From the IMG/VR virus record IMGVR_UViG_2534681773_000018: a DNA stretch of 17,705 nt. One strand, given 5' to 3'. Below are positions 1-17,705 of the stretch, piece after piece. Numbering within the stretch: the first letter of the stretch is position 1; the number at the start of each line of letters is the position of its first letter. A model generated the notes under the pieces. It was given only the letters and a program-made list of their open reading frames with translations, ran no database searches and was not told the DNA's origin. The stretch comes from a virus (lineage: Duplodnaviria; Heunggongvirae; Uroviricota; Caudoviricetes). Both the position numbers and the translations under genes were made by a program.

Positions 1-579
1 ATTGCACAGAATATGGCGGCGATGCTGACCGGCAGTGAGCAGAACTGGCGCAGCTTCACCCGTTCCGTGCTGTCCATGATGACAGAAATTCTGCTTAAGC
101 AGGCAATGGTGGGGATTGTCGGGAGTATCGGCAGCGCCATTGGCGGGGCTGTTGGTGGCGGCGCATCAGCGTCAGGAGGTACAGCCATTCAGGCTGCTGC
201 GGCGAAATTCCATTTTGCGACCGGGGGATTTACGGGAACCGGCGGCAAATATGAGCCAGCGGGGATTGTTCACCGTGGTGAATTTGTCTTCACGAAGGAG
301 GCAACCAGCCGGATTGGCGTGGGGAATCTCTACCGGCTGATGCGCGGCTATGCCACCGGTGGTTATGTCGGTACACCGGGCAGTCTGGCTGACAGCCGGT
401 CGCAGGCGTCCGGGACGTTTGAGCAGAATAACCATGTGGTGATTAACAACGACGGCACGAACGGGCAGATAGGTCCGGCTGCTCTGAAGGCGGTGTATGA
501 CATGGCCCGCAAGGGTGCCCGTGATGAAATTCAGACACAGATGCGTGATGGTGGCCTGTTCTCCGGAGGTGGACGATGA
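1..579 (+). CDS. H: Tail tape measure protein (lambda gpH-like), C-terminal part; 5' end lies outside the window
   Basis: Frame is open from position 1 with no upstream stop in the window; stop TGA 577-579 overlaps the ATG of the next gene (ATGA). Gly/Ala-rich C-terminus. Sits immediately upstream of the M-L-K-I-J block, as H does in lambda. Confidence 0.75.
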   Translation: MAQNMAAMLTGSEQNWRSFTRSVLSMMTEILLKQAMVGIVGSIGSAIGGAVGGGASASGGTAIQAAAAKFHFATGGFTGTGGKYEPAGIVHRGEFVFTKEATSRIGVGNLYRLMRGYATGGYVGTPGSLADSRSQASGTFEQNNHVVINNDGTNGQIGPAALKAVYDMARKGARDEIQTQMRDGGLFSGGGR

Positions 580-905
580 AGACCTTCCGCTGGAAAGTGA
601 AACCCGGTATGGATGTGGCTTCGGTCCCTTCTGTCAGGGAGGTGCGCTTTGGTGATGGCTATTCCCAGCGTGCGCCTGCCGGGCTGAACGCTGACCTGAA
701 AACGTACAGCGTGACGCTGTCTGTCTCCCGTGAGGAGGCCACGGCGCTGGAGTCGTTTCTGGCTGAGCACGGGGGCTGGAAGGCCTTTCTGTGGACGCCG
801 CCTTATGGTTACAGGCAGATAAAGGTGACCTGCGCAAAATGGTCGTCGCAGGTCAGTATGTTGCGTGTTGAGTTCAGCGCAGAGTTTAAACAGGTGGTGA
901 ACTGA
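576..905 (+). CDS. M: Minor tail protein M (lambda gpM-like), 109 aa
   Basis: ATG 576 overlaps the H stop. 109-aa product beginning MKTFRWKVKPGMDVASVP, same length as lambda gpM and near-identical to it as I recall it. Stop overlaps the L start (TGATG). Confidence 0.93.
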   Translation: MKTFRWKVKPGMDVASVPSVREVRFGDGYSQRAPAGLNADLKTYSVTLSVSREEATALESFLAEHGGWKAFLWTPPYGYRQIKVTCAKWSSQVSMLRVEFSAEFKQVVN

Positions 906-1603
906 TGCAGGATATCCGGCAGGAAACACTGAATGAATGCACCCGTGCGGAGCAGTCGGCCAGCGTGGTGCTCTGGGAAATCGATCTGACAGAGGTCGGT
1001 GGTGAACGTTATTTTTTCTGTAATGAGCAGAACGAAAAAGGTGAGCCGGTTACCTGGCAGGGGCGGCAGTATCAGGCATACCCCATTCAGGGGACAGGAT
1101 TTGAACTGAACGGCAAGGGCAGTGCTGCCCGTCCGACACTGACGGTTTCTAACCTGCACGGCATGGTCACGGGGATGGCGGAAGACCTGCAGAGTCTGGT
1201 CGGCGGAACGGTGGTCAGGCGTAAGGTTTACGCCCGTTTTCTGGATGCGGTGAACTTCGTCAACGGAAACAGTGACGCCGATCCGGAGCAGGAGGTGATC
1301 AGCCGCTGGCGCATCGAGCAGTGCAGCGAACTGAGCGCGGTGAGTGCCTCCTTTGTACTGTCCACGCCGACGGAAACGGATGGCGCTGTTTTTCCGGGAC
1401 GTATCATGCTGGCCAACACCTGCACCTGGACCTATCGCGGTGACGAGTGCGGTTATAGCGGTCCGGCTGTCGCGGATGAATATGACCAGCCAACGTCCGA
1501 TATCACGAAGGATAAATGCAGCAAATGCCTGAGCGGTTGTAAGTTCCGCAATAACGTCGGCAACTTTGGCGGCTTCCTTTCCATTAACAAACTTTCGCAG
1601 TAA
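905..1603 (+). CDS. L: Minor tail protein L (lambda gpL-like), 232 aa, with C-terminal Cys cluster
   Basis: 232-aa product beginning MQDIRQETLNECTRAEQSASVVLWEIDL, matching lambda gpL in length and sequence. C-terminal cysteines (CTWTYRGDECGYSG ... KCSKCLSGC) fit the reported Fe-S site of gpL. Confidence 0.93.
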   Translation: MQDIRQETLNECTRAEQSASVVLWEIDLTEVGGERYFFCNEQNEKGEPVTWQGRQYQAYPIQGTGFELNGKGSAARPTLTVSNLHGMVTGMAEDLQSLVGGTVVRRKVYARFLDAVNFVNGNSDADPEQEVISRWRIEQCSELSAVSASFVLSTPTETDGAVFPGRIMLANTCTWTYRGDECGYSGPAVADEYDQPTSDITKDKCSKCLSGCKFRNNVGNFGGFLSINKLSQ

Positions 1604-1608
1604 ATCCC

Positions 1609-2352
1609 ATGACACAGACAGAATCAGCGATTCTGGCGCACGCCCGGCGATGTGCGCCAGCGGAGTCGTGCGGCTTCGTGGTAAGCACGCCGGAGGGGGA
1701 AAGATATTTCCCCTGCGTGAATATCTCCGGTGAGCCGGAGGCGTATTTCCGTATGTCGCCGGAAGACTGGCTGCAGGCAGAAATGCAGGGGGAGATTGTG
1801 GCGCTGGTCCACAGCCACCCCGGTGGTCTGCCCTGGCTGAGTGAGGCCGACCGGCGGCTGCAGGTGCAGAGTGATTTGCCGTGGTGGCTGGTCTGCCGGG
1901 GTGAGATTCATAAGTTCCGCTGTGTGCCGCATCTCACCGGGCGGCGCTTTGAGCACGGTGTGACGGACTGTTACACACTGTTCCGGGATGCTTATCATCT
2001 GGCGGAGATTGAGATGCCGGATTTTGTGCGTGAGGATGACTGGTGGCGTAACGGTCAGAATCTCTATCTGGATAATCTGGAGGCCACAGGGCTGTATCAG
2101 GTGCCGTTGTCAGCGGCGCAGCCGGGCGATGTGCTGCTGTGCTGTTTTGGTTCATCGGTGCCGAATCACGCCGCTATTTACTGTGGTGACGGCGAGCTGC
2201 TGCACCATATTCCTGAACAACTGAGTAAACGGGAGAGGTATACCGACAAATGGCAGCGACGCACACACTCCCTCTGGCGTCACCGGGAATGGCACGCATC
2301 TGCCTTTACGGGGATTTGCAACGATTTGGCCGCCGCATCGACCTTCGTGTGA
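1609..2352 (+). CDS. K: Tail tip assembly protein K (lambda gpK-like): JAB/MPN (JAMM) domain plus NlpC/P60-like domain
   Basis: 247-aa ORF starting 6 nt after the L stop. Contains a JAMM-type motif HSHPGGLPWLSEAD (H-x-H-x7-S-x2-D) and a C-terminal region with Cys/His residues (GVTDCYTLF, PNHAAIYCGDGELLHH) typical of NlpC/P60. Its 3' end overlaps the I start by about 100 nt in another frame, as K and I do in lambda. Confidence 0.9.
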   Translation: MTQTESAILAHARRCAPAESCGFVVSTPEGERYFPCVNISGEPEAYFRMSPEDWLQAEMQGEIVALVHSHPGGLPWLSEADRRLQVQSDLPWWLVCRGEIHKFRCVPHLTGRRFEHGVTDCYTLFRDAYHLAEIEMPDFVREDDWWRNGQNLYLDNLEATGLYQVPLSAAQPGDVLLCCFGSSVPNHAAIYCGDGELLHHIPEQLSKRERYTDKWQRRTHSLWRHREWHASAFTGICNDLAAASTFV

Positions 2353-2921
2353 AAACGGGGGCTGAAGCCATCCGCGCACTGGCCACACAGCTCCCGGCGT
2401 TTCGTCAGAAACTGAGCGACGGCTGGTATCAGGTACGGATTGCCGGGCGGGACGTCAGCGCGTCCGGGTTAACGGCGCAGTTACATGAGACTCTGCCTGA
2501 CGGCGCTGTGATTCATATTGTTCCCAGAGTCGCCGGGGCCAAGTCAGGTGGCGTATTCCAGATTGTCCTGGGGGCTGCAGCCATTGCCGGATCATTCTTT
2601 ACCGCCGGAGCCACCCTTGCAGCATGGGGGGCAGCCATTGGGGCCGGTGGTATGACCGGCATCCTGTTTTCTCTCGGTGCCAGTATGGTGCTCGGTGGTG
2701 TGGCGCAGATGCTGGCACCGAAAGCCAGAACTCCCCGTACACAGACAACGGATAACGGTAAGCAGAACACCTATTTCTCCTCACTGGATAACATGGTTGC
2801 CCAGGGCAATGTTCTGCCTGTTCTGTACGGGGAAATGCGCGTGGGGTCTCGCGTGGTTTCTCAGGAGATCAGCACGGCAGACGAAGGGGATGGTGGTCAG
2901 GTTGTGGTGATTGGTCGCTGA
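2250..2921 (+). CDS. I: Tail tip assembly protein I (lambda gpI-like), 223 aa
   Basis: 223-aa product beginning MAATHTLPLASPGMARICLYGDLQRFGRRIDLRVKTG with a hydrophobic Gly/Ala-rich central segment, matching lambda gpI in length and sequence; position between K and J. Confidence 0.92.
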   Translation: MAATHTLPLASPGMARICLYGDLQRFGRRIDLRVKTGAEAIRALATQLPAFRQKLSDGWYQVRIAGRDVSASGLTAQLHETLPDGAVIHIVPRVAGAKSGGVFQIVLGAAAIAGSFFTAGATLAAWGAAIGAGGMTGILFSLGASMVLGGVAQMLAPKARTPRTQTTDNGKQNTYFSSLDNMVAQGNVLPVLYGEMRVGSRVVSQEISTADEGDGGQVVVIGR

Positions 2922-2937
2922 TGAAAAACGTTTATGT

Positions 2938-2962
2938 GAAACCGCCTGCGGGCGGTTTTGTC
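2938..2962 (+). other. Stem-loop in the I-J intergenic spacer (aaaccgcc-tgcg-ggcggtttt)
   Basis: Inverted repeat ccgcc / ggcgg with a 4-nt loop, followed by a short T-rich stretch, 20 nt upstream of the J ATG. Could be an attenuator or RNA-processing/translation-control structure; function not established. Confidence 0.3.
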
Positions 2963-2980
2963 GTTTATGGAGCGTGACGA

Positions 2981-5900
2981 ATGGGTAAAGGCAGCAGTAA
3001 GGGGCATACCCCGCGCGAAGCGAAGGACAACCTGAAGTCCACGCAGCTGCTGAGTGTGATCGATGCCATCAGCGAAGGGCCGATTGAAGGTCCGGTGGAT
3101 GGATTAAAAAGCGTGCTGCTGAACAGTACGCCGGTGCTGGACAGTGAGGGGAATACCAATATCTCCGGTGTCACGGTGGTGTTCCGGGCCGGTGAGCAGG
3201 AGCAGACACCGCCGGAGGGATTTGAATCCTCCGGCTCCGAGACGGTGCTGGGTACGGAAGTGAAATATGACACGCCGATCACCCGCACCATCACGTCGGC
3301 AAACATCGACCGTCTGCGCTTTACCTTCGGTGTGCAGGCACTGGTGGAAACCACCTCAAAGGGGGACAGGAATCCGTCGGAAGTCCGCCTGCTGGTTCAG
3401 ATACAGCGTAATGGTGGCTGGGTGACGGAAAAAGACATCACCATTAAGGGCAAAACCACCTCGCAGTATCTGGCCTCGGTGGTGGTGGATAACCTGCCGC
3501 CGCGCCCGTTCAATATCCGGATGCGCAGGATGACGCCGGACAGCACCACAGACCAGCTGCAGAACAAAACGCTCTGGTCGTCATACACCGAAATCATCGA
3601 TGTGAAACAGTGCTACCCGAACACGGCACTGGTCGGCGTACAGGTGGACTCGGAGCAGTTCGGCAGCCAGCAGGTGAGCCGTAATTATCATCTGCGCGGG
3701 CGTATTCTGCAGGTGCCGTCGAACTATAACCCGCAGACGCGGCAATACAGCGGTATCTGGGACGGAACGTTTAAACCAGCATACAGCAACAACATGGCCT
3801 GGTGTCTGTGGGATATGCTGACCCATCCGCGCTACGGCATGGGGAAACGTCTTGGTGCGGCGGATGTGGATAAATGGGCGCTGTATGTCATCGGCCAGAA
3901 TTGCGACCAGTCGGTGCCGGACGGCTTTGGCGGCACGGAGCCGCGCATCACCTGTAATGCCTGGCTGACCACACAGCGCAAGGCGTGGGATGTGCTCAGT
4001 GATTTCTGCTCGGCGATGCGCTGTATGCCGGTATGGAACGGGCAGACGCTGACGTTCGTGCAGGACCGACCATCAGATAAGGTGTGGACCTATAACCGCA
4101 GTAATGTGGTGATGCCGGATGATGGCGCGCCGTTCCGCTACAGCTTCAGCGCCCTGAAGGACCGCCATAATGCCGTTGAGGTGAACTGGATTGACCCGAA
4201 TAACGGCTGGGAGACGGCGACAGAGCTTGTGGAGGACACGCAGGCCATTGCCCGTTACGGTCGTAACGTCACGAAGATGGATGCCTTTGGCTGTACCAGC
4301 CGGGGGCAGGCACACCGCGCCGGGCTGTGGCTGATTAAAACAGAACTGCTGGAGACGCAGACCGTGGATTTCAGCGTGGGTGCTGAAGGGCTTCGCCATG
4401 TACCGGGCGATGTCATTGAAATCTGCGATGATGACTATGCCGGTATCAGCACCGGTGGGCGCGTGCTGGCGGTAAACAGCCAGACCCGGACGCTGACGCT
4501 CGACCGTGAAATCACGCCGCCATCCTCCGGTACCACGCTGATAAGCCTGGTTGACGGAAGTGGCAATCCGATCAGCGTGGAGGTTCAGTCCGTCACCGAC
4601 GGCGTGAAGGTGAAAGTGAGCCGTGTTCCTGACGGCGTTGCAGAATACAGTGTGTGGGGGCTGAAGTTGCCGACGTTGCGCCAGCGCCTGTTCCGCTGTG
4701 TGAGTATCCGTGAGAACGATGACGGCACGTATGCTATCACCGCCGTGCAGCATGTACCGGAAAAAGAAGCCATCGTGGATAACGGGGCGCACTTTGACGG
4801 CGACCAGAGCGGCACGGTGAATGGTGTCACGCCGCCAGCGGTGCAGCACCTGACTGCCGAAGTCACCGCAGACAGCGGGGAATATCAGGTGCTGGCGCGC
4901 TGGGACACACCGAAGGTGGTGAAGGGCGTGAGCTTCCTGCTCCGTCTGACCGTAACAGCGGACGACGGCAGTGAGCGGCTGGTCAGCACGGCCCGGACGA
5001 CGGAAACCACATACCGCTTCACACAACTGGCGTTGGGGAACTACAGGCTGACAGTCCGGGCGGTAAATGCGTGGGGACAGCAGGGCGATCCGGCATCGGT
5101 ATCGTTCCGGATTGCCGCACCGGCAGCGCCGTCTCGGATTGAGCTGACACCGGGCTATTTTCAGATAACCGCCACGCCGCATCTTGCGGTTTATGACCCG
5201 ACGGTACAGTTTGAGTTCTGGTTCTCGGAAAAACGGATTGCGGATATCAGGCAGGTTGAAACCAGCGCGCGTTATCTTGGTACGGCACTGTACTGGATAG
5301 CCGCCAGTATCAATATCAAACCGGGCCATGATTATTATTTTTACGTTCGCAGTGTGAACACCGTTGGCAAATCGGCATTCGTGGAGGCTGTCGGTCAGCC
5401 GAGTGATGATGCATCAGGCTATCTGGATTTTTTCAAAGGCGAGATAGGGAAAACCCATCTGGCTCAGGAGCTGTGGACGCAGATTGATAACGGTCAGCTT
5501 GCGCCTGACCTGACTGAAATCAGGACGTCCATAACGGATGTCAGCAATGAAATAACACAGACCGTCAATAAGAAACTGGAAGACCAGAGTGCAGCGATCC
5601 AGCAGATACAGAAGGTTCAGGTTGATACAAATAATAACCTGAACAGCATGTGGGCAGTGAAGCTGCAGCAGATGCAGGACGGACGCCTTTATATTGCGGG
5701 TATCGGTGCCGGTATTGAGAACACCCCTGACGGCATGCAGAGTCAGGTGCTGCTGGCAGCAGACAGGATTGCGATGATTAATCCTGCGAATGGCAACACA
5801 AAGCCGATGTTTGTTGGTCAGGGCGATCAGATATTCATGAATGAAGTGTTCCTGAAACGCCTGACGGCCCCCACCATTACCAGCGGCGGTAATCCTCCGG

Positions 5901-6478
5901 CATTTTCCCTGACATCAGACGGGAGACTGACGGCGAAAAATGCGGATATCAGTGGCAGTGTGAATGCGAACTCAGGAACGCTCAACAATGTCACGATTAA
6001 CCAGAACTGTACGATTAAGGGCATGCTGGAGGCGACCCAGGTCAGAGGAGATTTCGTTAAAGCTGTATCAAAAGCCTTCCCGAAAAAAGTCGGTACGTGG
6101 GGTAACACGGAAACACCAAACGGTACGGTTACAGTCACCATCAGCGATGATCATAACTTTGACCGCCAGATTATTATTCCGCCCATTATTTTTAACGGTA
6201 TAGCGTATGACGATCCGGGGAGCGGAAATAACCCAGGAGGCACGCGATACACGGGTTATGGTTTTGAAGTTCGCAAAAACGGCGTATTAATCGCATCCAG
6301 AGAAACTAAAGGGGCCATTCCCGGTAGTTACAGTGCAGTTATTGATATGCCGAGTGGCAGGGGAAGCGTCACTCTGGAGTTTAAGATTTTCCAGAAAGGC
6401 AATCAGGGGGCAGGCAATATCACCGACTGTACGGTGATTGTGACCAAAAAAGCCGCTTCCGGCATCAGTATTCGTTGA
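2981..6478 (+). CDS. J: Tail tip attachment / host specificity protein J (lambda gpJ-like), 1165 aa
   Basis: 1165-aa ORF beginning [54 protein letters not shown], matching the lambda gpJ N-terminal and central regions. The C-terminal third (receptor-binding region) differs from what I recall for lambda J. Immediately followed by an intrinsic terminator. Confidence 0.93.
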
Positions 6479-6548: not shown

Positions 6549-7148
6549 ATGCGTAAAGTTTGTGCAGCAATTTTGTCCGCAGCCATTTGTCTGGCCGTAT
6601 CCGGTGCGCCTGCATGGGCGTCTGAACATCAGTCCACGCTGAGCGCGGGGTATCTTCATGCCTCGACGAACGTCCCCGGCAGCGATGATCTGAACGGGAT
6701 TAACGTGAAATACCGTTATGAGTTTACGGACACACTGGGGCTGGTGACGTCATTCAGCTATGCAGGAGACAAGAATCGCCAGCTGACCCGTTACAGCGAT
6801 ACCCGCTGGCATGAAGATTCCGTTCGTAACCGCTGGTTCAGCGTAATGGCGGGGCCGTCTGTGCGCGTGAATGAATGGTTCAGCGCGTATGCGATGGCGG
6901 GTGTAGCTTACAGCCGTGTGTCGACTTTCTCCGGGGATTATCTTCGCGTAACTGACAACAAGGGGAAAAAGCACGATGTGCTGACCGGAAGTGATGACGG
7001 TCGCCACAGCAACACGTCTCTGGCGTGGGGGGCTGGCGTGCAGTTTAACCCGACCGAATCCGTGGCCATTGATATTGCTTATGAATGCTCCGGCAGTGGC
7101 GACTGGCGCACTGACGGTTTCATCGTGGGTGTCGGTTATAAATTCTGA
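6549..7148 (+). CDS. lom: Lom-family outer membrane protein (Ail/Lom/OmpX beta-barrel), 199 aa, prophage moron
   Basis: Signal-peptide-like N-terminus (MRKVCAAILSAAICLAVSGAPAWA), C-terminal GVGYKF beta-barrel terminus with terminal Phe, position directly after J as in lambda. Preceded by GAGAGG ribosome-binding site and flanked by terminators on both sides. Confidence 0.9.
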   Translation: MRKVCAAILSAAICLAVSGAPAWASEHQSTLSAGYLHASTNVPGSDDLNGINVKYRYEFTDTLGLVTSFSYAGDKNRQLTRYSDTRWHEDSVRNRWFSVMAGPSVRVNEWFSAYAMAGVAYSRVSTFSGDYLRVTDNKGKKHDVLTGSDDGRHSNTSLAWGAGVQFNPTESVAIDIAYECSGSGDWRTDGFIVGVGYKF

Positions 7149-7212: not shown

Positions 7213-10107
7213 ATGGCAGTAAAGATTTCAGGTGTACTGAAAGACGGCACAGGAAAACCGGTACAGAACTGCACAATCCAGCTGAAAGCAAAACGTAACA
7301 GCACCACGGTGGTGGTGAACACGCTGGCCTCAGAAAATCCGGATGAAGCCGGGCGTTACAGCATGGACGTTGAGTACGGGCAGTACAGCGTTATTCTGTT
7401 GGTGGAGGGATTCCCGCCGTCACATGCCGGGACCATCACCGTGTATGAAGATTCCCGACCCGGTACGCTGAATGATTTTCTCGGTGCCATGACGGAGGAT
7501 GATGCCCGTCCTGAGGCACTGCGCCGTTTTGAACTGATGGTGGAAGAGGTGGCGCGTAACGCGTCCGCGGTGGCACAGAACACGGCAGCCGCGAAGAAGT
7601 CAGCCAGCGATGCCAGCACATCAGCCCGTGAGGCGGCAACCCATGCGACTGATGCTGCAGATTCAGCACGTGCAGCCAGCACGTCAGCCGGACAGGCCGC
7701 TTCGTCGGCTCAGTCAGCGTCTTCCAGCGCAGGAACGGCATCAACAAAGGCCACTGAAGCCTCAAAAAGTGCTGCCGCTGCAGAGTCCTCAAAAAGCGTG
7801 GCAGCTACCAGTGCCGGTGCGGCGAAAACGTCAGAAACGAATGCCGCAGCGTCAGAACAATCAGCCGCCACTTCTGCATCCACCGCGACCACGAAAGCGT
7901 CAGAAGCTGCCACCTCAGCCCGGGATGCGGCGGCCTCAAAAGAGGCAGCGAAATCATCAGAAACGAACGCATCCTTGAGCGCCAGTAGCGCAGCTTCCTC
8001 GGCAACGGCGGCAGGAAATTCCGCGAAGGCGGCAAAAACGTCCGAGACGAACGCCAGGTCTTCTGAGACGGCAGCGGGACAGAGCGCCTCAGCTGCGGCA
8101 GGCTCAAAAACAGCGGCTGCGTCGTCTGCCAGTGCCGCGTCAACAAGTGCCGGGCAGGCCTCAGCCAGTGCCACCGCCGCCGGAAAATCGGCAGAAAGCG
8201 CCGCATCATCCGCTTCAACAGCCACAACGAAGGCTGGCGAAGCCACTGAGCAGGCCACGGCAGCAGCGAGGTCAGCTTCCGCAGCGAAGACATCCGAAAC
8301 GAACGCGAAAGCGTCGGAAACCCGTGCAGAATCCTCAAAAACGGCAGCGGCATCGTCCGCCAGTTCGGCGGCGTCATCGGCATCATCGGCGTCTGCTTCA
8401 AAAGATGAGGCGACCAGACAGGCGTCAGCAGCGAAGGGCAGCGCCACGACGGCATCCACGAAGGCGACAGAGGCTGCTGGTAGTGCGAAGGCAGCAGCTC
8501 AGAGCAAAAGTACGGCGGAATCTGCAGCAACGCGCGCTGAGACAGCGGCAAAACGGGCAGAGGATATTGCATCCGCCGTGGCGCTTGAGGATGCGAGCAC
8601 GACGAAAAAGGGGATAGTACAGCTCAGTAGTGCGACTAACAGCACTTCCGAGTCACTGGCGGCAACGCCAAAGGCAGTAAAAGCAGCCAATGACAATGCT
8701 GAGAAACGTCTGCAGAAAGATCAGAACGGTGCGGATATCCCTGGCAAAGACACCTTTACGAAAAATATTGGTGCCTGCCGTGCCTTCGGTGGGTCAGTAA
8801 GCACAACAACAGGAAACTGGACGACTGCACAGTTTATCGAGTGGCTGGATTCTCAGGGAGCATTTAACCATCCATACTGGATGTGCAAGGGTTCCTGGTC
8901 TTATGGCAATAATAAAATCATTACTGATACTGGCTGCGGTAATATTCATCTCGCCGGAGCTGTCATTGAAGTAATGGGGATAAAGTCAGCGATGACGATC
9001 CGCATTACCACTCCGACCACATCCAGCGGTGGCGGAACAACCAACGCCCAGTTTACCTATATTAATCACGGAACAGATTATTCACCTGGCTGGCGAAGGG
9101 ACTATAACTCCAGAAATAAGCCAACGGCATCAGAGATCGGGGCGCTACCGTCAGGTGGAACAGCAGTATCATCAGTTAATCTGGCTTCAAAAGGTCGGGT
9201 AGCCGCGCTGACAGACAATACGCAGGGGGCAGCAGGTCTTGAGTTATACGAGGTGTATAACAACGGATATCCAACAACGTATGGAAATATCATTCACCTG
9301 AAAGGGATGACAGCCGTTGGCGAAGGTGAGTTACTCATCGGCTGGAGTGGTACAAGCGGTGCTCATGCTCCGGCATTTATTCGTTCACGACGGGATACGA
9401 CCGACGCAAACTGGTCGCCGTGGGCGCAGCTTTACACCTCGGCTCATCCTCCTGCAGAGTTTTATCCAGTCGGTGCACCAATCCCGTGGCCATCAGATAC
9501 CGTTCCGTCTGGTTATGTCCTGATGCAGGGGCAGACTTTTGACAAATCTGCATACCCGAAACTTGCAGCCGCTTATCCGTCAGGCGTGATCCCTGATATG
9601 CGTGGCTGGACGATTAAGGGCAAACCTGCCAGTGGTCGGGCCGTATTGTCTCAGGAACAGGACGGCATTAAATCGCACACCCACAGCGCCAGCGCATCCA
9701 GTACGGATTTGGGGACGAAAACCACATCGTCGTTTGATTACGGCACTAAATCCACGAATAACATCGGGGCGCATACGCACAGTGTGAGCGGTACAGCCGC
9801 AAGTGCCGGAAACCATACTCATAGTGTCACAGGCGCATCAGCAGTCAGCCAGTGGTCACAAAATGGGTCAGTACATAAGGTAGTGTCTGCGGCCAGTGTG
9901 AATACAAGTGCTGCAGGAGCGCACACTCATAGTGTCAGCGGCACAGCTGCATCTGCAGGTGCTCACGCACATACTGTCGGTATTGGTGCTCATACGCACT
10001 CGGTTGCGATTGGCTCACATGGACACACCATCACCGTTAACGCTGCTGGTAACGCGGAAAACACCGTCAAAAACATCGCATTTAACTATATTGTGAGGCT
10101 TGCATGA
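7213..10107 (+). CDS. stf: Side tail fibre protein (lambda Stf-like), about 964 aa from ATG 7213
   Basis: N-terminus [26 protein letters not shown] matches lambda Stf. The ORF track starts at GTG 7207, but ATG 7213 is preceded by a GGGG run and matches the lambda start. Long Ala/Ser/Thr-rich repetitive segment, a Cys/Trp-containing central domain, and a C-terminal region with repeated GAHxH motifs ending [11 protein letters not shown] as in lambda Stf. Confidence 0.9.
7560..8590 (+). repeat. Imperfect tandem coding repeats (Ala/Ser/Thr-rich, recurring AAKTSETNA / SASTATTKA units) inside stf
   Basis: Recurrent nucleotide motifs such as aaaacgtcagaaacgaatgc / aagacatccgaaacgaacgc and the corresponding peptide repeats. 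The region has few stop codons in any frame, which produces many overlapping alternative-frame ORFs in the track. Confidence 0.6.
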
Positions 10108-10394
10108 TTACGCTCATTCTTTCTGCACCAGTAACCGAAATGGCTGAAGCATTTAAGCGGGTATTTGCAAATGCAGATAATGTGAATATTGTCGGAAAGC
10201 CATTTGAAACAATCAGAGAATTTGACTGCATGGTAAGTGCGGCAAATAGTTTCGGCCTGATGGATGGCGGTGTTGATGCCGCCATTACCACATTCTTCGG
10301 TTCTCAGCTACAGGCCCGCGTTCAGAATCATATTCTTCGTGAATATCTCGGCGAGCAGCCTGTAGGTTCTGCATTTGTGATCCTACCCACGTAA
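10104..10394 (+). CDS. Macro-domain-like protein fragment (putative ADP-ribose binding/processing); 3' end truncated by IS3
   Basis: ATG 10104 overlaps the stf stop (ATGA), suggesting translational coupling. Product contains [21 protein letters not shown], resembling the macro-domain signature (VVNAAN...GGGV..AI). Visibly more AT-rich than stf. The frame runs into the IS3 terminal repeat (from 10378) and stops there, so the last few codons are IS-derived. Confidence 0.45.
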
Positions 10395-10407
10395 TATGGA
10401 CACAGGC

Positions 10408-11274
10408 CTAAGCGAGGTTCTGGTTTTCAAATTGTTCCGGACTGAGGCCGCCACACCAACTGTGCCGCCGCCACCGATTGTAATCACATTCGATATAATT
10501 AAACACCGTTGCCCGCATTATTTCCCGGCTGATAAAGTGTTCTCCATGGATACATTCCACTTTCAGCGAATGAAAGAAGCTTTCCACGCAGGCATTATCG
10601 TAGCAGCAACCTTTTGCGCTCATACTTCCACGCAGATTATGCCGCTTCAGTTGCGCCTGATAATCTGCTGAACAGTACTGGCCTCCACGGTCCGTGTGAA
10701 CGATAACGTTCCGGGGCCTCTTACGCCGCCACAGCGCCATCTGCAGGGCATCGCAGGCCAGTTGCGCCGTCATGCGTGGCGACATTGACCAGCCAATAAC
10801 GGCACGTGACCACAGGTCAATGACCACTGCCAGATACAGCCAGCCTTCATCTGTACGTAAGTACGTGATGTCTCCTGCCCACTTCTGGTTCGGGCCACTG
10901 GCGTAAAAATCCTGCTCCAACAGATTTTCTGACACAGGCAGGCCGTGTGCGCGGTAGCTGACCGGGCTGAACTTCCGGGAGGCCTTTGCCCTCAGTCCCT
11001 GACGGCGCAGGCTTGCCGCCACGGTTTTTACGTTAAAGGGGTAACCCTGAGCACGCAGTTCATCCGTCAGGCGTGGGGCACCGTAACGCTGTTTTGACCG
11101 GGTAAAAGCCGCGAGGACAACGCTGTCGCAGTGTTGGCGGAACTGCTGACGCGTGCTTATCCTTGTCCGCCGCTGACACCACGTATACCAGCCGCTGCGG
11201 GCCACCCGGAGCACGCGGCACATTGCTTTGATGCTGAACTCAGCCTGATGTTTTTCAATAAAGACATACTTCAT
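10408..11274 (-). CDS. insF: IS3 transposase OrfB (DDE integrase-like catalytic domain), 288 aa
   Basis: 288-aa ORF beginning [36 protein letters not shown], recognisable as the IS3 OrfB/InsF sequence. ATG 11272-11274 overlaps the orfA stop in the -1 arrangement typical of the IS3 family. Confidence 0.9.
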
Positions 11275-11569
11275 TTCAGGCGCTTCGCGAAGTATGTCGC
11301 GGCCTTTTGGAGGATAGCCAGCTCTTCATCCCGTTCTGCCAGCTGGCGTTTGAGACGTGCAATCTCGGTAGACATCTCCAGTTCACGTTCAGAAGACGTC
11401 TGCTGATTTTGCTGTTTACTGCGCCAGTTGTAGAGCTGTGATTCATACAGGCTGAGTTCACGGGCTGCGGCAGTAACACCGATGCGTTCAGCAAGCTTCA
11501 GGGCTTCACTGCGAAATTCAGGCGAATGCTGTTTACGGGGTTTTTACTGGTTGATACTGTTTTTGTCAT
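11271..11569 (-). pseudogene. insE: IS3 orfA (InsE-like HTH protein); reading frame appears interrupted in this copy
   Basis: ATG at 11567-11569 opens the expected MTKTVSTSK start and the C-terminal segment ([37 protein letters not shown]) is readable in the frame ending at 11271-11273. No intact ORF joins them in the track: the span is 299 nt (not a multiple of 3) and my hand translation hits an early stop after about 20 codons. Base-level details here are uncertain. Confidence 0.5.
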
Positions 11570-11634
11570 GTGAGTCACCTCTGACTGAGAGTTTACTCAC
11601 TTAGCCGCGTGTCCACTATTGCTGGGTAAGATCA

Positions 11635-11857
11635 CCGGGCAGGTCTGTATTAACCCTGAACATCAGGCTGATGATGTACTGATACAACATCAGGCTAATA
11701 ACCGGTTTCGCCCTGGTTCGCATATACACCGGATTAATCCAGAAAATCCTGTAGGTAATGTCATCTCTGGCGCACATAGCCACGGAAGTAGCATCGTTAT
11801 TGGTGCTCACACCCATACGCTCAATAAACAATATTCTGTCTCTGATATTAAGTAGAG
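11635..11857 (+). pseudogene. 3' remnant of a second tail fibre gene (His-rich GAHxH C-terminal repeat region), truncated at the IS3 boundary
   Basis: The frame entering from the IS3 end encodes ...[30 protein letters not shown] and stops 8 nt before the tfa start. It resembles, but is not identical to, the GAHTHSV.../[16 protein letters not shown] repeats at the stf C-terminus. It sits where a fibre gene 3' end is expected, directly upstream of tfa. Confidence 0.45.
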
Positions 11858-11863
11858 GTGAAC

Positions 11864-12439
11864 ATGGATTTCAGAATGAGTGAACAACCACGGACCATAA
11901 CAATTTATAATCTGCTGGCCGGAACTAATGAATTTATTGGTGAAGGTGACGCATACATTCCGCCTCATACAGGTCTGCCAGCAAACAGTACCGATATTGC
12001 ACCGCCAGATATTCCGGCTGGTTTCGTGGCTGTTTTCAACAGTGATGAGTCATCGTGGCATCTCGTTGAAGATCATCGGGGTAAAACGGTTTATGACGTG
12101 GCTTCCGGCGACGCGTTATTTATTTCTGAACTCGGCTCATTACCGGAAAATGTCACCTGGTTATCCCCGGAAGGGGAGTTTCAGAAGTGGAACGGCACAG
12201 CCTGGGTGAAGGATACGGAAGCAGAAAAACTGTTCCGGATCCGGGAGGCGGAAGAAACAAAAAACAGCCTGATGCAGGTAGCCAGTGAGCATATAGCGCC
12301 GCTTCAGGATGCTGTGGATCTGGAGATCGCAACGGAGAAAGAAACCTTGTTGCTGGAAGCCTGGAAAAAGTATCGGGTGTTGCTGAACCGTGTTGATACA
12401 TCAACTGCACCGGATATTGAATGGCCAGCCCTACCGTAG
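11864..12439 (+). CDS. tfa: Tail fibre assembly protein (lambda Tfa-like), about 191 aa from ATG 11864
   Basis: Product [62 protein letters not shown] ... [45 protein letters not shown] closely matches lambda Tfa. GAGGTG ribosome-binding site about 5 nt upstream of ATG 11864 (the ORF track starts at GTG 11858). Confidence 0.9.
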
Positions 12440-12515: not shown

Positions 12516-12540
12516 AATCTCACACCGAGATTATTTTTAT
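12516..12540 (+). terminator. Weak hairpin plus T-run between the convergent tfa and invertase genes (possible terminator)
   Basis: aatctc (12516-12521) / gagatt (12527-12532) with loop acacc, followed by atttttat. The stem is short and AT-rich and overlaps the invertase stop codon. Confidence 0.25.
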
Positions 12541-13127
12541 ATATCAGGTGTCTGATTTTTTGCTTTAGCTCTTAAAATGGTTTGCCGCGAGGTTTTGAAT
12601 TCTTGGGCAATGTCACTTATATTTATACCTGACTTAATTTGCTCTAGTACCCTCTGTATTTGTTCATCATTTAACACAGGTGGGCGACCAAATCGCTTTC
12701 CTGCGCCCCGTGCTCTTAATATCCCTGAATGAGTACGCTCAAGTAAAAGGTCTCGCTCAAATTCAGCGACTGCTGAAATTACTTGCATCATCATTTTTCC
12801 AGGTGGACTGGTCAGGTCAACGCCCCCCAATGCTAAGCAATGCACTTTGATACCTGCTTTGGTCAGTTGTTCCACCGTTTTACTGATATCCATTGGATTA
12901 CAACCGAGGCGATCCAGTTTTGTGACAATCAATGCATCACCTCTTTTCAGTCGATCAAGCAACTGGTTAAAACCAGGACGCTCACTGGTTGCTGCTGAGC
13001 CGCTAATTTGTTCTTCAATTATTTGCTGAGATTTGATGTTAAAACCTGCACTTTCGATTTCCCGACGTTGATTTTTGGTTGTCTTTTCCAGAGTTGATAC
13101 CCGACAGTAAGCATAAATTCGAGACAT
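12537..13127 (-). CDS. Serine recombinase, Gin/Hin/Pin/Cin-type DNA invertase (resolvase/invertase family), 196 aa
   Basis: N-terminal catalytic motif YAYCRVST (active-site Ser), conserved [19 protein letters not shown] and GRPP motifs, and a C-terminal HTH-like tail. It aligns along its length with Gin/Hin as I recall them. Located next to tail-fibre/tfa genes, as pin, gin and cin are. Confidence 0.85.
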
Positions 13128-13445: not shown

Positions 13446-13712
13446 TTACATTTTACCATTTAAATTTTTGTTGTCTTTAAGAACTGATATCGCTGTTTGT
13501 AATAATTCTTTGTTATCCAGCCATGACTTTTTCTTTATGTTTCCTTCAATGTAATCAAGCAATGTTCTGGTATTGATAGGTCTTCCCTGTTTTGCTACTT
13601 CCACTACAGCATCCCCTAGGATAATTCTTACTTCAGGAAGCTGCGCAGGGAACCACTTTAGGGTGTCTTTTGATTTCATGAAGATATTCCTTAAAATATT
13701 ATTGATTTTCAT
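13446..13712 (-). CDS. Hypothetical small protein (77-88 aa), AT-rich, no recognisable family
   Basis: ORF on the - strand. The second Met (ATG 13677-13679) is preceded by an AAGGAA ribosome-binding site and is the more plausible start. Very AT-rich. I recognise no motif, and coding status is uncertain. Confidence 0.35.
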   Translation of the reverse strand: MKINNILRNIFMKSKDTLKWFPAQLPEVRIILGDAVVEVAKQGRPINTRTLLDYIEGNIKKKSWLDNKELLQTAISVLKDNKNLNGKM

Positions 13713-14180
13713 TGCGATATTGTATGTCTGATTCAGGATATGTTGACTTATACATCGGTTTTGTCTGGGTTATTGGATATGCCAATCCCTAATTTTATTA
13801 GAGCATGACTAAAAATGCTGAATATGATAAGGAGCGAAGTGATTATCAGTATGCTGTTCATATAGCCTCGAATTAGTAATGTGTTATATATGATATAGTT
13901 GACAATTTTTATCCTGGGTGTTCTTAAAGTTCGTAGATAAACATTGTCGTTTCAGGTATACAGGAATGCTAACAGGTGGCGGCAAAAATCAGGCGGTTTA
14001 TGGCGCAAGCTGAAGTGTCAACTGCAAACTATCTTATGCAGAGACTCTACACGGATTGGGTTTAAAAGTATACATAGATAACAGTTTTTATCTGAAGAAG
14101 AAAAATATCAAGGTGATATAGCCTATATGCCTATGATGCGGAGGAATGAATGTGATGGGAGTGATGTATCTGAATAGTTG

Positions 14181-14220
14181 AAAAACCGCAGACACGCCTT
14201 ATGCAAGAACGTGCTGCGGT
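14181..14220 (-). terminator. Rho-independent terminator for the - strand methyltransferase gene
   Basis: Stem ccgcagacacg (14186-14196) / cgtgctgcgg (14210-14219) with one bulge. On the - strand the stem is followed directly by TTTTT (complement of aaaaa 14181-14185), a few nt downstream of the methyltransferase stop. Confidence 0.5.
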
Positions 14221-14226
14221 TGGATG

Positions 14227-14895
14227 CTATTTTTTCCCTGAAGCGGAAAACATTACTACAGTACCTTGAACCTTGGTTTTAACATTCTCGAAATACTCTG
14301 AGAGTATATGTGTTAAGCCTTCTTCGGAATCTTTTGTGTTTGAAAAGATGCCTTTCTGATTGTAAATGCGCATCAGTTTTTGACCGAAGCTATTGTGCAC
14401 AATTCCATCGCCAAGAATTGTGGCTCCGTATAGAGTTCCATCGTCAGTTAAGGCCTGCGCCGCATTGCGTATTACACAGCTTTTTGTAGATATATTTCCA
14501 GGCAGGCAGTGAAGAAGGTAAAACATGGAAATGGAATCAAATTGACCATGTAACGCCGCGGGATAAGGTTCAAAAACATCATGGTTAATTTTATGTTTAA
14601 TTTTTGATTCCCCAGCCCTTGTAGATGCCGCGTTCAGGCTAGCTTCGTTCAAATCCATTAAAGATATCAGACTACTCTCAGGTACGTGAGTAAGGTAAAA
14701 CCCAGTTCCAACACCAATATCCAGATGGTTGTTACCTAAATGTTCCAGAAAGTGTGGAAGAAGGTGTTCCTTTGTAGGACATCCCCATGCAAGCCGATTT
14801 GATACTCCCAAAACCCACCAGTCATAAAGCTTTAGGGTAAGTGGTGTGTAAATTTTAGCCCCATCATCTGTGTTTTTTTTCATTAATTTCACCAT
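14227..14895 (-). CDS. ybcY: Class I SAM-dependent methyltransferase (ybcY-like), 222 aa
   Basis: Contains the glycine-rich SAM-binding motif LDIGVGTGF. Its position between a tfa gene and a tfaX-like remnant upstream of appY-ompT matches the DLP12 gene order as I remember it. The symbol is assigned by synteny and is not verified. Confidence 0.6.
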   Translation of the reverse strand: MVKLMKKNTDDGAKIYTPLTLKLYDWWVLGVSNRLAWGCPTKEHLLPHFLEHLGNNHLDIGVGTGFYLTHVPESSLISLMDLNEASLNAASTRAGESKIKHKINHDVFEPYPAALHGQFDSISMFYLLHCLPGNISTKSCVIRNAAQALTDDGTLYGATILGDGIVHNSFGQKLMRIYNQKGIFSNTKDSEEGLTHILSEYFENVKTKVQGTVVMFSASGKK

Positions 14896-14951
14896 GTTAT
14901 AGTTTTATTTGTGAATTAAATCAATTATGGCAATGAATTACAAGGGGTTAA

Positions 14952-15212
14952 ATGCTGCCGCAGCATAGCGATATTGAAATAGCCTGGTATGCTTCAATAC
15001 AGCAGGAGCCGAATAGCTGGAAGACCGTCACCACACAGTTCTACATCCAGGAATTCAGTGAGTATATTGCGCCACTGCAGGATGCTGTAGATCTGGAAAT
15101 CGCAACGGAGGAAGAAAGATCGTTGCTGGAAGCCTGAAAAAAGTATCGGGTGCTGCTAAACCGTGTGGACACTTCCGTAGCACCAGATATCGAGTGGCTT
15201 ATTCAACCATAA
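14952..15212 (+). pseudogene. tfaX: Tail fibre assembly gene remnant (tfaX-like): tfa C-terminal homology interrupted by an in-frame stop
   Basis: A 61-aa ORF ends at TGA 15135-15137 in the context EAWKKY (TGG to TGA relative to the intact tfa at 12360). The same frame continues [24 protein letters not shown] to TAA 15210-15212. The 3' roughly 140 nt is a diverged direct repeat of the tfa 3' end (12291-12431). Confidence 0.65.
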
Positions 15213-15753
15213 TAAACAGTATGTATATCATAGGTTATTAATTGTGAGTTTTTTCGGTGTGTTATTTGTTTGATGTTATGCTTTTGCGCCCCAAAAGGTT
15301 GTTTAGATGTATTTTATCAATTGATTTTCAATATCGTTTAATAAAGAAAAATTAAGCAAGCTGGATGTTGGTTTTTTGTTAATTGAATGGTTCTAATAAT
15401 GTTTTTTTACTGTTGTTGAATGTGACTTGATAAGAAATGCAAGTAAAAATGATACTCTTTTTATTTTAAATTCAAACGGTTGACATATATATAGCAAGAG
15501 GTTTCAGGTGCGTTGTAGTGAGTTTATGTTAATAAAAAGTATAGTAAGCGTTGAAAAATGTAACTTTGAAATACGTTAGAATAAAAAACAATATACATAT
15601 AATAATTTAATCTTAAATGAAATTTATTAAAATTTGCAAACTATAATTTTGTGTATAAAAATATAAATGCACATCATCCTGATTATGATTGTGTATTTAA
15701 TTGGTTGTTATTTGACTGCTATCAACTTGTTTTAATTTTATGATAGGTGCAAG

Positions 15754-16502
15754 ATGGATTATGTTTGCTCCGTAGTTTTCATCTGTCAATCATTTGATTT
15801 AATTATAAACAGGAGAGTTATCTCGTTCAAAAAAAATTCATTGTTTATTGTAAGCGACAAAATTAGAAGGGAGTTACCAGTATGCCCCTCTAAACTAAGA
15901 ATTGTTGATATAGATAAGAAAACATGTTTATCCTTTTTTATCGACGTGAATAATGAGCTGCCTGGCAAATTTACTCTTGATAAGAATGGCTATATTGCTG
16001 AAGAGGAACCTCCATTATCGCTTGTTTTTTCTCTGTTTGAAGGGATTAAAATAGCAGACTCACACTCCCTTTGGTTAAAAGAAAGACTATGTATATCCTT
16101 ACTTGCCATGTTCAAAAAACGCGAAAGTGTAAATTCTTTTATACTAACAAATATAAATACATTTACCTGTAAAATTACTGGAATAATCAGTTTTAATATT
16201 GAGCGGCAATGGCATTTAAAAGATATTGCGGAATTGATTTATACGAGTGAAAGTTTAATAAAAAAAGATTAAGGGATGAAGGAACGTCATTTGCTGAAAT
16301 ATTGAGAGATACTAGGATGAGGTATGCAAAAAAACTCATAACTTCAAACTCTTATTCTATCAATGTCGTAGCCCAGAAATGTGGCTATAACAGTACTTCA
16401 TATTTCATATGTGCATTTAAAGATTATTATGGTGTCACGCCATCTCATTATTTTGAGAAAATAATCGGCGTCACAGATGGAATAAACAAAACAATTGACT
16501 GA
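15754..16502 (+). pseudogene. appY: AraC-family transcriptional regulator AppY, interrupted by a frameshift in a poly-A tract (split into 172-aa and 66-aa ORFs)
   Basis: N-terminus [21 protein letters not shown] and its position directly upstream of ompT identify appY. The first frame stops at 16270-16272 right after an A7 run (16260-16266). The second AraC HTH ([24 protein letters not shown]...[23 protein letters not shown]) continues in the +1 frame. The span is 749 nt, one short of a 249-aa gene plus stop. Confidence 0.75.
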
Positions 16503-16751
16503 TAATGTTTATTACAAGTTGTCTACATGTTAATTATAATATTATACAGCGTTTTTTCTGATGTGATATTCTGGAACCATTAATTTGTAATTGGGTTGCT
16601 GTCGCCTATTTTATACATACTATAATTGATGGTTTTCTATGTGATTTAGTTAATAACCTTCTGGGTTTATTTTAAGGGTTAATTGTTACATTGAAATGGC
16701 TAGTTATTCCCCGGGGCGATTTTCACCTCGGGGAAATTTTAGTTGGCGTTC

Positions 16752-17705
16752 TTAAAATGTGTACTTAAGACCAGCAGTAGTGATGAAGTTATAGTTTTCT
16801 ATACCTGCTCCATTTTTGCTGTAGTCTGAAGTGTTATTATTGTGATCATAAAGTGAAGTATTACCTTTTTTATTCGTAACCCGATTCCATGCGCCTTCAA
16901 CATAAACTTTTGCGTTAGGTGTGACGTAATAACCTGCATTGACTGCAACAGAATAGTAATTTTGGTCTTTGACCTTACTGCGATAAGTGATTCTTTTTCC
17001 CGGGTCATAGTGTTCATCGTTATCAGATGATTCCACCCAGCCGCTGTATTTAAATGTGCCACCGAGTTCAAAATCTTCATAACGATAACTTCCAGTCAAG
17101 CCAATGTAGGGCATTTTAAAACGTTGTTTGTAGCCGATTGCCCTTTCTCCATTCGGGAAGGAGCCGATATCATCTCTGAATCCCTCCTCAGAACTGTAGA
17201 TATAGGAACCACCTCTGGCTGTAAAGCTATAACGGCTTTCCTGATATCCGGCCATGAGTCCCAGGCGGTAATTGGGTTCGTTGAGGAGCCAGCCTTTGAT
17301 ATTCAGATCAAATTCGTTGGCATAATTGAGTTGTGTATCAGGGTGTCTACTTTCATCCGTCCAGGTTCCGGGGTTACTGGAATCCATCCAGTCCTGATCG
17401 ACCATATTGCCACCTCGGCTGCCGAGAGTTGTCCAGCCAGCAGCCCCGATAGATATCTGGGGCATCAAATCCCAATTAATTGCACCTTTAATAATTGCAG
17501 CGCTATTGAATTTCCAGTCGAGTTGACTGACTTTTCGGCCTCCTTCTTCGGCTAGATAAACACGCTCTTTTGTTTTTCCGCTCAGAGTTCCAAGACTAAT
17601 GTCCGCATTTATGTTGTCAGGAGTAAACGATAAAGTCTCGGTAGAAGCAAAAGAGCTGATCGCAATAGGGGTTGTCAGGACTATTCCCAGAAGTTTCGCC
17701 CGCAT
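16752..17705 (-). CDS. ompT: Omptin-family outer membrane protease OmpT (protease VII), 317 aa, complete
   Basis: Start codon at 17703-17705 (window edge). Signal peptide MRAKLLGIVLTTPIAISSFA, mature N-terminus STETLSFTPDNINADISLG and C-terminal TTAGLKYTF are recognisable as E. coli OmpT; length 317 aa. Confidence 0.93.
   Translation of the reverse strand: MRAKLLGIVLTTPIAISSFASTETLSFTPDNINADISLGTLSGKTKERVYLAEEGGRKVSQLDWKFNSAAIIKGAINWDLMPQISIGAAGWTTLGSRGGNMVDQDWMDSSNPGTWTDESRHPDTQLNYANEFDLNIKGWLLNEPNYRLGLMAGYQESRYSFTARGGSYIYSSEEGFRDDIGSFPNGERAIGYKQRFKMPYIGLTGSYRYEDFELGGTFKYSGWVESSDNDEHYDPGKRITYRSKVKDQNYYSVAVNAGYYVTPNAKVYVEGAWNRVTNKKGNTSLYDHNNNTSDYSKNGAGIENYNFITTAGLKYTF

Follow-up and report, generated by a model that had tools for sequence, protein, structure and literature searches.

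The window analysed here (the whole stretch of 17,705 nucleotides) very probably comes from a nearly complete DLP12-family lambdoid prophage, of which it would be the right arm, with the late tail genes at one end and the accessory region near att at the other. Its left edge falls inside gene H and its right edge at the start codon of ompT; we infer the location at argU and the completeness of the prophage from its relatives, because the integrase, the att sites, the head genes and the chromosomal flanks lie outside the window. The layout is ordinary and already known, both from many E. coli genomes and from plaque-forming phages, and the join it contains is not a strain-specific hybrid.

DLP12 is a cryptic prophage of E. 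coli K-12 located at argU (Lindsey et al. 1989, cited in PMC6379469 and PMC10057817). The lineage of the window would integrate at this site, with DLP12 as the deleted remnant kept by K-12, and its H-M-L-K-I-J, lom, stf and tfa genes would be responsible for making the tail of the virion. Past tfa, the AT-rich DNA would lie where lambda has its b region, from the fibre genes to attP, and would hold lysogenic-conversion or accessory genes (pin, a ydfK-like and a ynaM-like gene, ybcY, tfaX, appY and ompT). Accessory DNA sits between tfa and attP in both phage types, with the b region of lambda (ea47, ea31, ea59) replaced in the window by pin-ydfK-ynaM-ybcY-tfaX-appY-ompT. The GC content is 0.552 in 1-12439 and 0.371 in 12440-17705, stepping down at the end of tfa (12439), as the first-pass annotation had proposed when it placed a change from GC-rich tail genes to AT-rich accessory DNA around 12.4 kb. 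Given the b-region position of the accessory DNA, the step at 12.44 kb would be a normal boundary between structural and accessory genes and not the scar of a recent fusion.

Tail genes and the joint inside J

The window has the order H-M-L-K-I-J-lom-stf-tfa in common with lambda, and the synteny claimed earlier for its left part (H-M-L-K-I-J-lom-stf) holds in the alignment, where positions 1-5477 share 96.2% of their nucleotides with lambda 12525-18002 (H'-M-L-K-I-J), a match that extends over the first two-thirds of J, and are followed by lom, stf and tfa. The tail-tip genes stand in lambda order on the + strand, all open and with no internal stops, and H', M, L and I share 91-99.5% of their amino acids with lambda. 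They comprise the 3' end of the tape-measure gene H (1..579; truncated at the window edge to 192 codons; 99.5% amino-acid identity to the C-terminus of lambda H), M (576..905; 109 aa, 90.8% amino-acid identity), L (905..1603; 232 aa, 96.6%), K (1609..2352; 247 aa, 95-99% nucleotide identity to lambda, annotated as a C40 family peptidase in C5), I (2250..2921; 223 aa, 99.1% amino-acid identity) and the host-specificity gene J (2981..6478; 1165 aa).

When J is compared with lambda J per 100 aligned columns, the identity is 96-100% up to column 800 and 32-77% (amino acids) beyond it; the receptor specificity is probably different, since the last third of the protein diverges from that of lambda. 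J also contains a breakpoint at ~4768/4769. Compared with the HY220605 genome, positions 1-4768 have 168 mismatches and positions 4769-7085 have none, and over the whole of 4769-17705 about 8 differences are found (~11 kb, with the misaligned positions of the stf repeat array set aside). Judged by these counts, a recent homologous-recombination joint inside J, at ~4768, is the only recent, strain-level breakpoint of the window. Relative to the closest relatives, this recombination would have swapped the upstream tail genes for another lambdoid allele; no donor of the left 5 kb is identifiable, with 98.3% the highest identity among complete genomes. As no complete genome exceeds this value over the left 5 kb, the upstream part of the source prophage could differ from that of C5 and of the phage PhiR68_2.

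Downstream of J, the lom gene (6549..7148, + strand) encodes an outer-membrane protein of the Ail/Lom type (PF06316 Ail_Lom, E 2e-122), which is 96-98% identical in nucleotides to lomR of the K-12 prophage Rac and shares 46% of its amino acids with lambda Lom. The side tail fibre gene stf (7213..10107, + strand) is intact, with phage_tail_N (E 1e-71), Collar and Phage_fiber domains. Its N-terminal part is 95.5% identical to Rac stfR, lom and this part of stf being Rac-like at 95-97%, and positions 9200-9809 are 96.4% identical to stfQ of the K-12 prophage Qin; the repeat array is 132 bp shorter than in C5, in frame. The fibre assembly gene tfa (11864..12439, + strand; Caudo_TAP, E 4e-44) is ~94% identical in nucleotides to both lambda tfa and K-12 tfaD (93.8% over 12010-12426 for the latter). 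An Rfam match to IS009 falls inside tfa; it was the sole match in the Rfam and tRNA scans of the window, which found no tRNAs.

The pin cassette and the DLP12-type end

The right 5 kb had been read as the DLP12 order tfa-methyltransferase-tfaX-appY-ompT. The part from ybcY to ompT stands, at 99.2% nucleotide identity, but a 1.76-kb block (12427-14185) that carries pin, a ydfK-like and a ynaM-like gene separates tfa from the methyltransferase gene. This cassette, which the first-pass annotation had overlooked, is absent from K-12 DLP12 and present in K-12 Rac and Qin. It contains an orphan serine invertase gene of the Pin type (12537..13127, - strand; Resolvase and HTH_7 domains, PHROG 125 DNA invertase, homologous to pinR and pinQ) and the small ydfK/ynaE-like and ynaM/ynfT-like genes (13446..13861, - strand), annotated in C5 and HY220605 and lying inside the ~95% match to Rac and Qin. 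Positions 11864-14223/14235 of the window match the right ends of Rac (95.2%) and Qin (94.9%), where the orders are stfR-tfaR-pinR-ynaE-ynaM and stfQ-tfaQ-pinQ-ydfK-ynfT, respectively. In Rac and Qin the prophage ends within ~200 bp of the cassette, whereas in the window another 3.5 kb of accessory genes, specific to DLP12, come after it.

The match to Rac and Qin includes an intrinsic-terminator hairpin 3' of ybcY (14186..14225, - strand; a stem followed by UUUUU, -22.3 kcal/mol and z -4.3 on folding), which a simple terminator scan missed because of its loop limit and which folding revealed. Rac, Qin and K-12 DLP12 all have this hairpin, which is the only place where the blocks of similarity overlap; on this pattern, the hairpin at 14186-14225 is where Rac/Qin-type sequence joins DLP12-type sequence. 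The ynaM-hairpin-ybcY junction of the window is found in 318 of 5426 genomes and the tfaD-hairpin-ybcY junction of K-12 in 2355 of them.

Past the hairpin, alignment of the locus with K-12 DLP12 and with lambda found the right-hand genes to be orthologous to the appY-ompT region, with window 14186-17705 matching NC_000913 582112-585633 (b0562-b0565) at the 99.2% given above, in the same order and orientation. The class I SAM-dependent methyltransferase gene ybcY (14227..14895, - strand; Methyltransf_12 and related domains, PHROG 2132) is intact in the window and a pseudogene in K-12, as seen from the translations. It is followed by tfaX (14952..15212, + strand), the remnant of a second tfa in direct orientation to the first, with a 61-aa ORF one substitution away from K-12 TfaX and with positions 15045-15198 82% identical to tfa 12272-12425. 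The gene for the AraC-family regulator AppY (15754..16502, + strand) is frameshifted after codon 171 by a contraction of A8 to A7 (16260-16266), with loss of the C-terminal 78 residues downstream, and is intact in C5, HY220605 and K-12. This contraction and a similar one in IS3 orfA, the two being a further change with respect to the closest relatives, may be sequencing errors; if the one in appY is real, the gene may be non-functional. The omptin protease gene ompT (16752..17705, - strand; Omptin, E 3e-129) is intact and differs by one amino acid from K-12 OmpT.

Complete relatives and the deleted form in K-12

The same gene order is carried by 42 complete E. coli genomes, each of which matches 80% or more of the window at a single locus (97.5-98.8% identity), and the nearest relatives are ~99.9% identical over 4769-17705. 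In C5 and HY220605 the arm is part of a DLP12-type prophage with ompT-envY-ybcH-nfrA at its right-hand border; this agrees with the earlier suggestion that the strain carries a less decayed relative of DLP12. The C5 prophage is full length, and its left end (argU-intD) is preceded by sfm-fimZ. From there the order is argU-intD...cI-cro-O-P-ren-emrE-ybcK..quuD-nmpC-essD-rrrD-rzpD-nohD-A...J, continuing as J-lom-stf-macro-tfa-pin-ydfK-ynaM-ybcY-tfaX-appY-ompT-envY-ybcH-nfrA. HY220605 has the same order in the region compared (rusA-quuD rightwards to nfrA), with its capsid gene E interrupted by an inserted island.

Among phages, PhiR68_2 (PV340576) has the order H-M-L-K-I-J-lom-stf-tfa-pin-ynaE-ybcY-tfaX-appY-ompT-att and is 98.0% identical over 89% of the window. 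It differs in having neither the macro-domain gene between stf and tfa nor IS3, in carrying a different allele of the pin region (90-96%) and in its left 4.8 kb, which are 2-7% different from the window. The 49,669-bp genome of PhiR68_2 has the argU att core at its start and remains collinear with DLP12 between the two att ends. The integrase that it encodes shares 99.8% identity with IntD, and the genome end, 423 bp past ompT, coincides exactly with the annotated end of K-12 DLP12. The plaque-forming phage PhiR68.2 serves as a lambda relative in efficiency-of-plaquing assays (bioRxiv 10.1101/2025.11.03.685801); this preprint was the sole relevant item in our literature search, which found no paper on the genome organisation of PhiR68_2. 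Related phages are Kati, PhiR29_1, ev243 and 2G7b, and at least 10 phage records have ompT under the window match. The comparison confirms that appY and ompT, usually seen as genes of a cryptic K-12 prophage, are carried as cargo by a living lambdoid phage lineage.

K-12 DLP12, which occupies the same chromosomal site as the prophages closest to the window, retains the orthologous ybcY-tfaX-appY-ompT genes and, in tfaD, the counterpart of the window tfa. It lacks the tail-tip genes, as previously noticed: 24.07 kb are missing from terminase A to tfa, comprising all the head and tail genes, and the 1.76-kb pin-ydfK-ynaM block is absent as well. Both endpoints of the 24-kb deletion were mapped, the right one at window position 12010, and the 1.76-kb difference, either a loss in K-12 or a gain in the lineage of the window, corresponds to 12427-14185. 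By sequence comparison, K-12 DLP12 can be derived from the C5/PhiR68_2-type form by the 24.07-kb deletion. The window thereby supplies exact coordinates for the truncation of K-12 DLP12, with small significance beyond annotation.

IS3, the macro-domain gene and the origin of the join

Between stf and tfa, a copy of IS3 (10378..11634, - strand; 1257 bp, 99.76% identical to K-12 IS3C, with terminal inverted repeats at 10377-10416 and 11596-11635) splits a macro-domain gene into a truncated 5' fragment (10104..10377, + strand; PF01661, E 6e-7) and a 3' fragment (11635..11857, + strand), collinear with C5 from L001 27179 onward. IS3 elements are about 1258 bp long, with orfA and orfB, and a simple insertion is expected to leave a 3-bp target-site duplication. 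In this copy orfB is intact and orfA has a 1-bp deletion (A6 to A5). The 3-bp duplication is absent from its flanks (TTG and CCG) and ~404 bp of the macro-domain gene are gone beside it, the flanks being otherwise collinear with C5, which indicates a deletion adjacent to IS3. Insertion into the macro-domain gene with this adjacent deletion would be the second change with respect to the closest relatives, after the recombination in J. The IS3::macro junction occurs in none of 5426 complete genomes, although the surrounding gene order is common to the relatives. The insertion is a private one, which destroyed the macro-domain gene but did not drive any rearrangement; it may be polar on tfa. The source strain has intact tail-tip genes and an IS3-inactivated gene between stf and tfa.

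As its other alternative, the first-pass annotation had envisaged that recombination in the fibre/tfa genes, possibly driven by IS3 and the invertase, gave rise to a hybrid. That either IS3 transposition or Pin inversion joined the two halves is scarcely credible. Both elements do lie between the GC-rich and the AT-rich parts, and IS3 lacks its target duplication, with ~404 bp missing beside it; however, relatives without IS3 have the same gene order and the two IS3 flanks are parts of one macro-domain gene. As for Pin, a serine invertase gene adjoining fibre genes is also the arrangement of the Mu G/Gin, P1 C/Cin and e14 P/Pin systems, but a 26-bp hix/gix/cix/pix-type consensus has no match in the window at up to 3 mismatches. 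A scan for the core dyad AAACCNNGGTTT gave only a chance-level match in ybcY, and searches for inverted and direct repeats at two seed sizes found no inverted repeats in the window beyond the IS3 ends. Nor does the window have another set of fibre-tip and assembly genes facing the opposite way: its one further tfa copy, tfaX, lies past the invertase, is a 3' fragment and points in the same direction as tfa. We reject an invertible tail-fibre segment on these grounds, crossover sites, flanking inverted repeats and an opposite gene set all being missing in the window.

A hybrid made in the source strain by some other route, in which recombination in the fibre/tfa genes between an incoming lambda-like phage and a DLP12 remnant already present gave the phage its appY-ompT end, is improbable, if less so than a role for IS3 or Pin. 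Lambdoid mosaicism speaks for it, since the best matches vary by segment among lambda, Rac, Qin and DLP12, and so do the identity of tfa to K-12 tfaD (93.8%, against 99.2% for the DNA to its right) and the existence of a real breakpoint in J. Nevertheless, this breakpoint is the sole one at strain level and lies in J, not in fibre/tfa; the joint between Rac/Qin-type and DLP12-type sequence is at the hairpin and common to 318 genomes; and the linkage from tfa to ompT is also found in independent E. coli genomes of cattle, yak, human and chicken origin and in packaged phage genomes, so that any hybrid event predates the source strain. There is likewise very little chance that the contig was mis-joined through the tfa or IS3 repeats: such repeats exist (tfa and tfaX at 82%, and IS3), and the two homopolymer indels hint at error-prone reads, but the order across the join is reproduced in the 42 complete genomes and in phages, and only the IS3 insertion is unique.

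The macro-domain gene is intact in C5 (L001 26497-27399) and HY220605, where its 300-aa product has an N-terminal macro domain, a Cys-rich middle and C-terminal GAHxH repeats. Macro domains are ADP-ribose-binding or hydrolase folds. It is doubtful, on present evidence, that the gene encodes an uncharacterised tail-fibre accessory protein, and our literature search found no paper on a macro-domain fibre gene; if the protein did belong to the virion, fibres would have a new kind of component, enzymatic or ligand-binding, that travels with the fibre-tip/chaperone cassette. The GAHxH repeats are of a type found in fibre tips. Two P2-like phages, SEN4 and Chuche, also have the fibre-macro-tfa triad, and remoter macro-domain relatives in jumbo phages carry the label "tail protein".

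Lambda-type tail genes and a DLP12-type right end

The window was aligned to lambda (NC_001416), to the DLP12 region of K-12 (NC_000913, 563000-590000), to two close E. coli relatives and to one phage. Window 1-5477 is 96.2% identical to lambda 12525-18002, and the 3' end of H, followed by M, L, K, I and J, lies within this match and beyond it, all as open reading frames (protein identity to lambda of 91-99.5% for H', M, L and I); J is followed by lom, an intact stf (964 aa) and tfa, confirming the lambda synteny that the first-pass annotation had proposed for this part. J (1165 aa) keeps 96-100% identity to lambda J per 100 aligned columns through column 800 and just 32-77% past it, so its receptor-binding end is unlike that of lambda. 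Over lom and the opening 1.5 kb of stf the window is Rac-like (95-97% identity), and part of the C-terminal half of stf is Qin-like (96%), Rac and Qin being other cryptic prophages of K-12. Compared with C5 and HY220605, the E. coli strains carrying the closest relatives, the stf repeat array (window 8608-8694) is 132 bp (44 codons) shorter, in frame and within an Ala/Ser/Glu-rich repeat region, which is a length polymorphism in the fibre shaft.

On the other side, window 14186-17705 aligns to K-12 582112-585633 (ybcY, tfaX, appY, ompT) with 99.2% identity, and the 3' 417 bp of tfa to K-12 tfaD with 93.8%. The DLP12-type right end previously read here stands for ybcY-tfaX-appY-ompT and falls for the supposed adjacency of tfa and the methyltransferase gene, which are 1.76 kb apart. 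The reported change from GC-rich to AT-rich DNA near 12.4 kb is a step at the tfa stop codon (12439), with a GC content of 0.552 up to it and 0.371 thereafter. The AT-rich block occupies the place that the b region takes in lambda, with the fibre genes on one side and attP on the other, and is ordinary phage cargo, since the same arrangement is found in C5, HY220605, the plaque-forming Escherichia phage PhiR68_2 and other phage records. Judged from the alignments, the combination of a lambda-type left part and a DLP12-type right part is real, far beyond chance. The ybcY methyltransferase gene (14227-14895), a pseudogene in K-12, is intact here (222 aa, PHROG 2132). A match to Rfam IS009 (218 bits, window 12207-12405) falls wholly within the tfa coding sequence, and this family is probably conserved tfa or tfa-pseudogene sequence, not a separate RNA gene.

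The 1.76-kb block setting tfa and ybcY apart (window 12427-14185) carries a Pin-type serine invertase gene (12537-13127, minus strand) together with ydfK/ynaE-like and ynaM/ynfT-like small genes. Window 11864-14223/14235, which includes it, is 95.2% identical to the right end of Rac (tfaR-pinR-ynaE-ynaM) and 94.9% to the Qin end (tfaQ-pinQ-ydfK-ynfT). Similarity of the Rac/Qin type and similarity of the DLP12 type overlap nowhere but in a 40-50 bp hairpin, at 14186-14225 (minus strand; a stem and then UUUUU, directly 3' of ybcY), for which folding gives -22.3 kcal/mol and a z of -4.3. The same hairpin, of intrinsic-terminator type, is kept in Rac, Qin, K-12 DLP12 and the window prophage; it is the module joint between Rac/Qin-type and DLP12-type sequence, and it may serve as a linker for module exchange.

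A less decayed relative of DLP12

In each of 42 complete E. coli genomes, a single place accounts for 80% or more of the window (97.5-98.8% identity), and what stays uncovered is essentially IS3. In C5, the copy of the arm lies inside a full-length prophage, whose gene order starts as sfm-fimZ-argU-intD ... cI-cro-O-P-ren-emrE-ybcK-ybcL-ybcM-ybcN-ninE-ybcO-rusA-ylcG-quuD-nmpC, continues as nmpC-essD-rrrD-rzpD-iss/bor-ylcI-nohD-A-W-B-C-D-E-...-H-M-L-K-I-J-lom-stf and ends as stf-macro-tfa-pin-ydfK-ynaM-ybcY-tfaX-appY-ompT, before envY-ybcH-nfrA. HY220605 has the C5 order from rusA-quuD rightwards (the region examined), with an island in capsid gene E. Both the site and the gene set are those of DLP12, and the middle that K-12 has lost is present. 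PhiR68_2 (PV340576, 49,669 bp) is organised like the C5-type prophage: its record starts at the att core in argU, its integrase is 99.8% identical to intD, and its end, 423 bp past ompT, is the same point as the annotated end of K-12 DLP12. Under the name PhiR68.2, it serves as a plaque-forming lambda relative in a recent preprint (10.1101/2025.11.03.685801). In at least ten phage records the matched stretch includes ompT. DLP12, at argU, is described as the most prevalent E. coli prophage (PMC6379469, PMC10057817). The lambda-type/DLP12-type join is not special to the window's strain, and the arrangement is already known from full-length relatives in RefSeq genomes and GenBank phage records. 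Of the two readings first offered, a less decayed relative of DLP12 is borne out by the same arm at the DLP12 site in the full-length C5 prophage and by the organisation of PhiR68_2. Neither an integrase gene nor an att site nor a chromosomal flank falls within the window itself; from relatives nearly identical over 4769-17705, we infer that its prophage is complete and located at argU.

When K-12 is aligned to C5, two differences appear in this arm. In K-12, codon ~103 of terminase A runs straight into the final 417 bp of tfa, with 24.07 kb gone (C5 locus 3480-27553; right end at window 12010). Additionally, the tfaD stop is followed almost directly by the hairpin and window 12427-14185 is absent: either K-12 lost this stretch or the window form gained it. 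Of the two junctions, the K-12 type occurs more often (2355 of 5426 complete genomes, versus 318 for the window type).

IS3, the invertase and exchange inside J

The other reading was a hybrid formed in the fibre/tfa genes, with IS3 and the invertase as possible drivers. IS3 (10378-11634, minus strand; 99.76% to K-12 IS3C) has destroyed a macro-domain gene that C5 and HY220605 carry between stf and tfa, leaving fragments at window 10104-10377 and 11635-11857 (the intact copy lies at 26497-27399 of the C5 locus). The flanks lack a 3-bp target duplication, and ~404 bp have been lost from the gene, a sign that IS3 inserted and that a deletion arose next to it; the IS3::macro junction was found in 0 of 5426 complete genomes. 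Both flanks belong to one gene and relatives without this IS3 keep the same order, arguing against it as a driver. As for the invertase, crossover partner sites are missing: the window has no match to a 26-bp crossover consensus even with 3 mismatches allowed, the core dyad occurs once, at chance level, and the sole notable inverted-repeat pair is the IS3 ends. The second tfa copy, tfaX (15045-15198 versus 12272-12425, 82%), is in direct orientation and beyond the invertase. There is no segment of the Mu G or e14 P type, and Pin is an orphan here, as in Rac and Qin. Both elements are rejected as drivers, and a hybrid made by them in tfa finds no support.

Exchange is indicated elsewhere. Against HY220605, the window has 168 mismatches in 1-4768, the next at 7086, and ~8 real differences over the remainder; divergence from the nearest relatives is 3.5% left of ~4768/4769, inside J, and ~0.07% right of it. 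So sharp a change marks a recent homologous exchange in J, by which the tail genes upstream of it were replaced. The block to the left is itself mixed: at 1501-2000 it is 99% lambda-like, and elsewhere its identity to every reference is 92-98%. Among complete genomes its best match reaches 98.3%, so that no donor at 99% or above is present there.

Two indels set the window apart from all relatives: A7 versus A8 in appY (16260-16266), which cuts AppY short after residue 171 with loss of the C-terminal 78 residues, and A5 versus A6 in IS3 orfA (~11546). Because both are homopolymer contractions, sequencing error is a serious possibility, although they could be real slippage mutations.

The macro-domain protein matches PF01661 (E 6e-19) and PHROG 2613 (annotated function unknown) and has C-terminal GAHxH fibre-type repeats. 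A literature search on this gene found no paper; the P2-like phages SEN4 and Chuche have the same fibre-macro-tfa triad, whereas PhiR68_2 and lambda lack the gene. Finally, the HY220605 island (~10.7 kb, ~28000-38800 of that locus), which interrupts major capsid gene E in the DLP12-type prophage there, carries a tyrosine integrase, primase, SSB, major capsid and decoration genes of its own, a gene of abortive-infection type and a DUF262/HEPN pair, and looks like a phage satellite within its helper's capsid gene.
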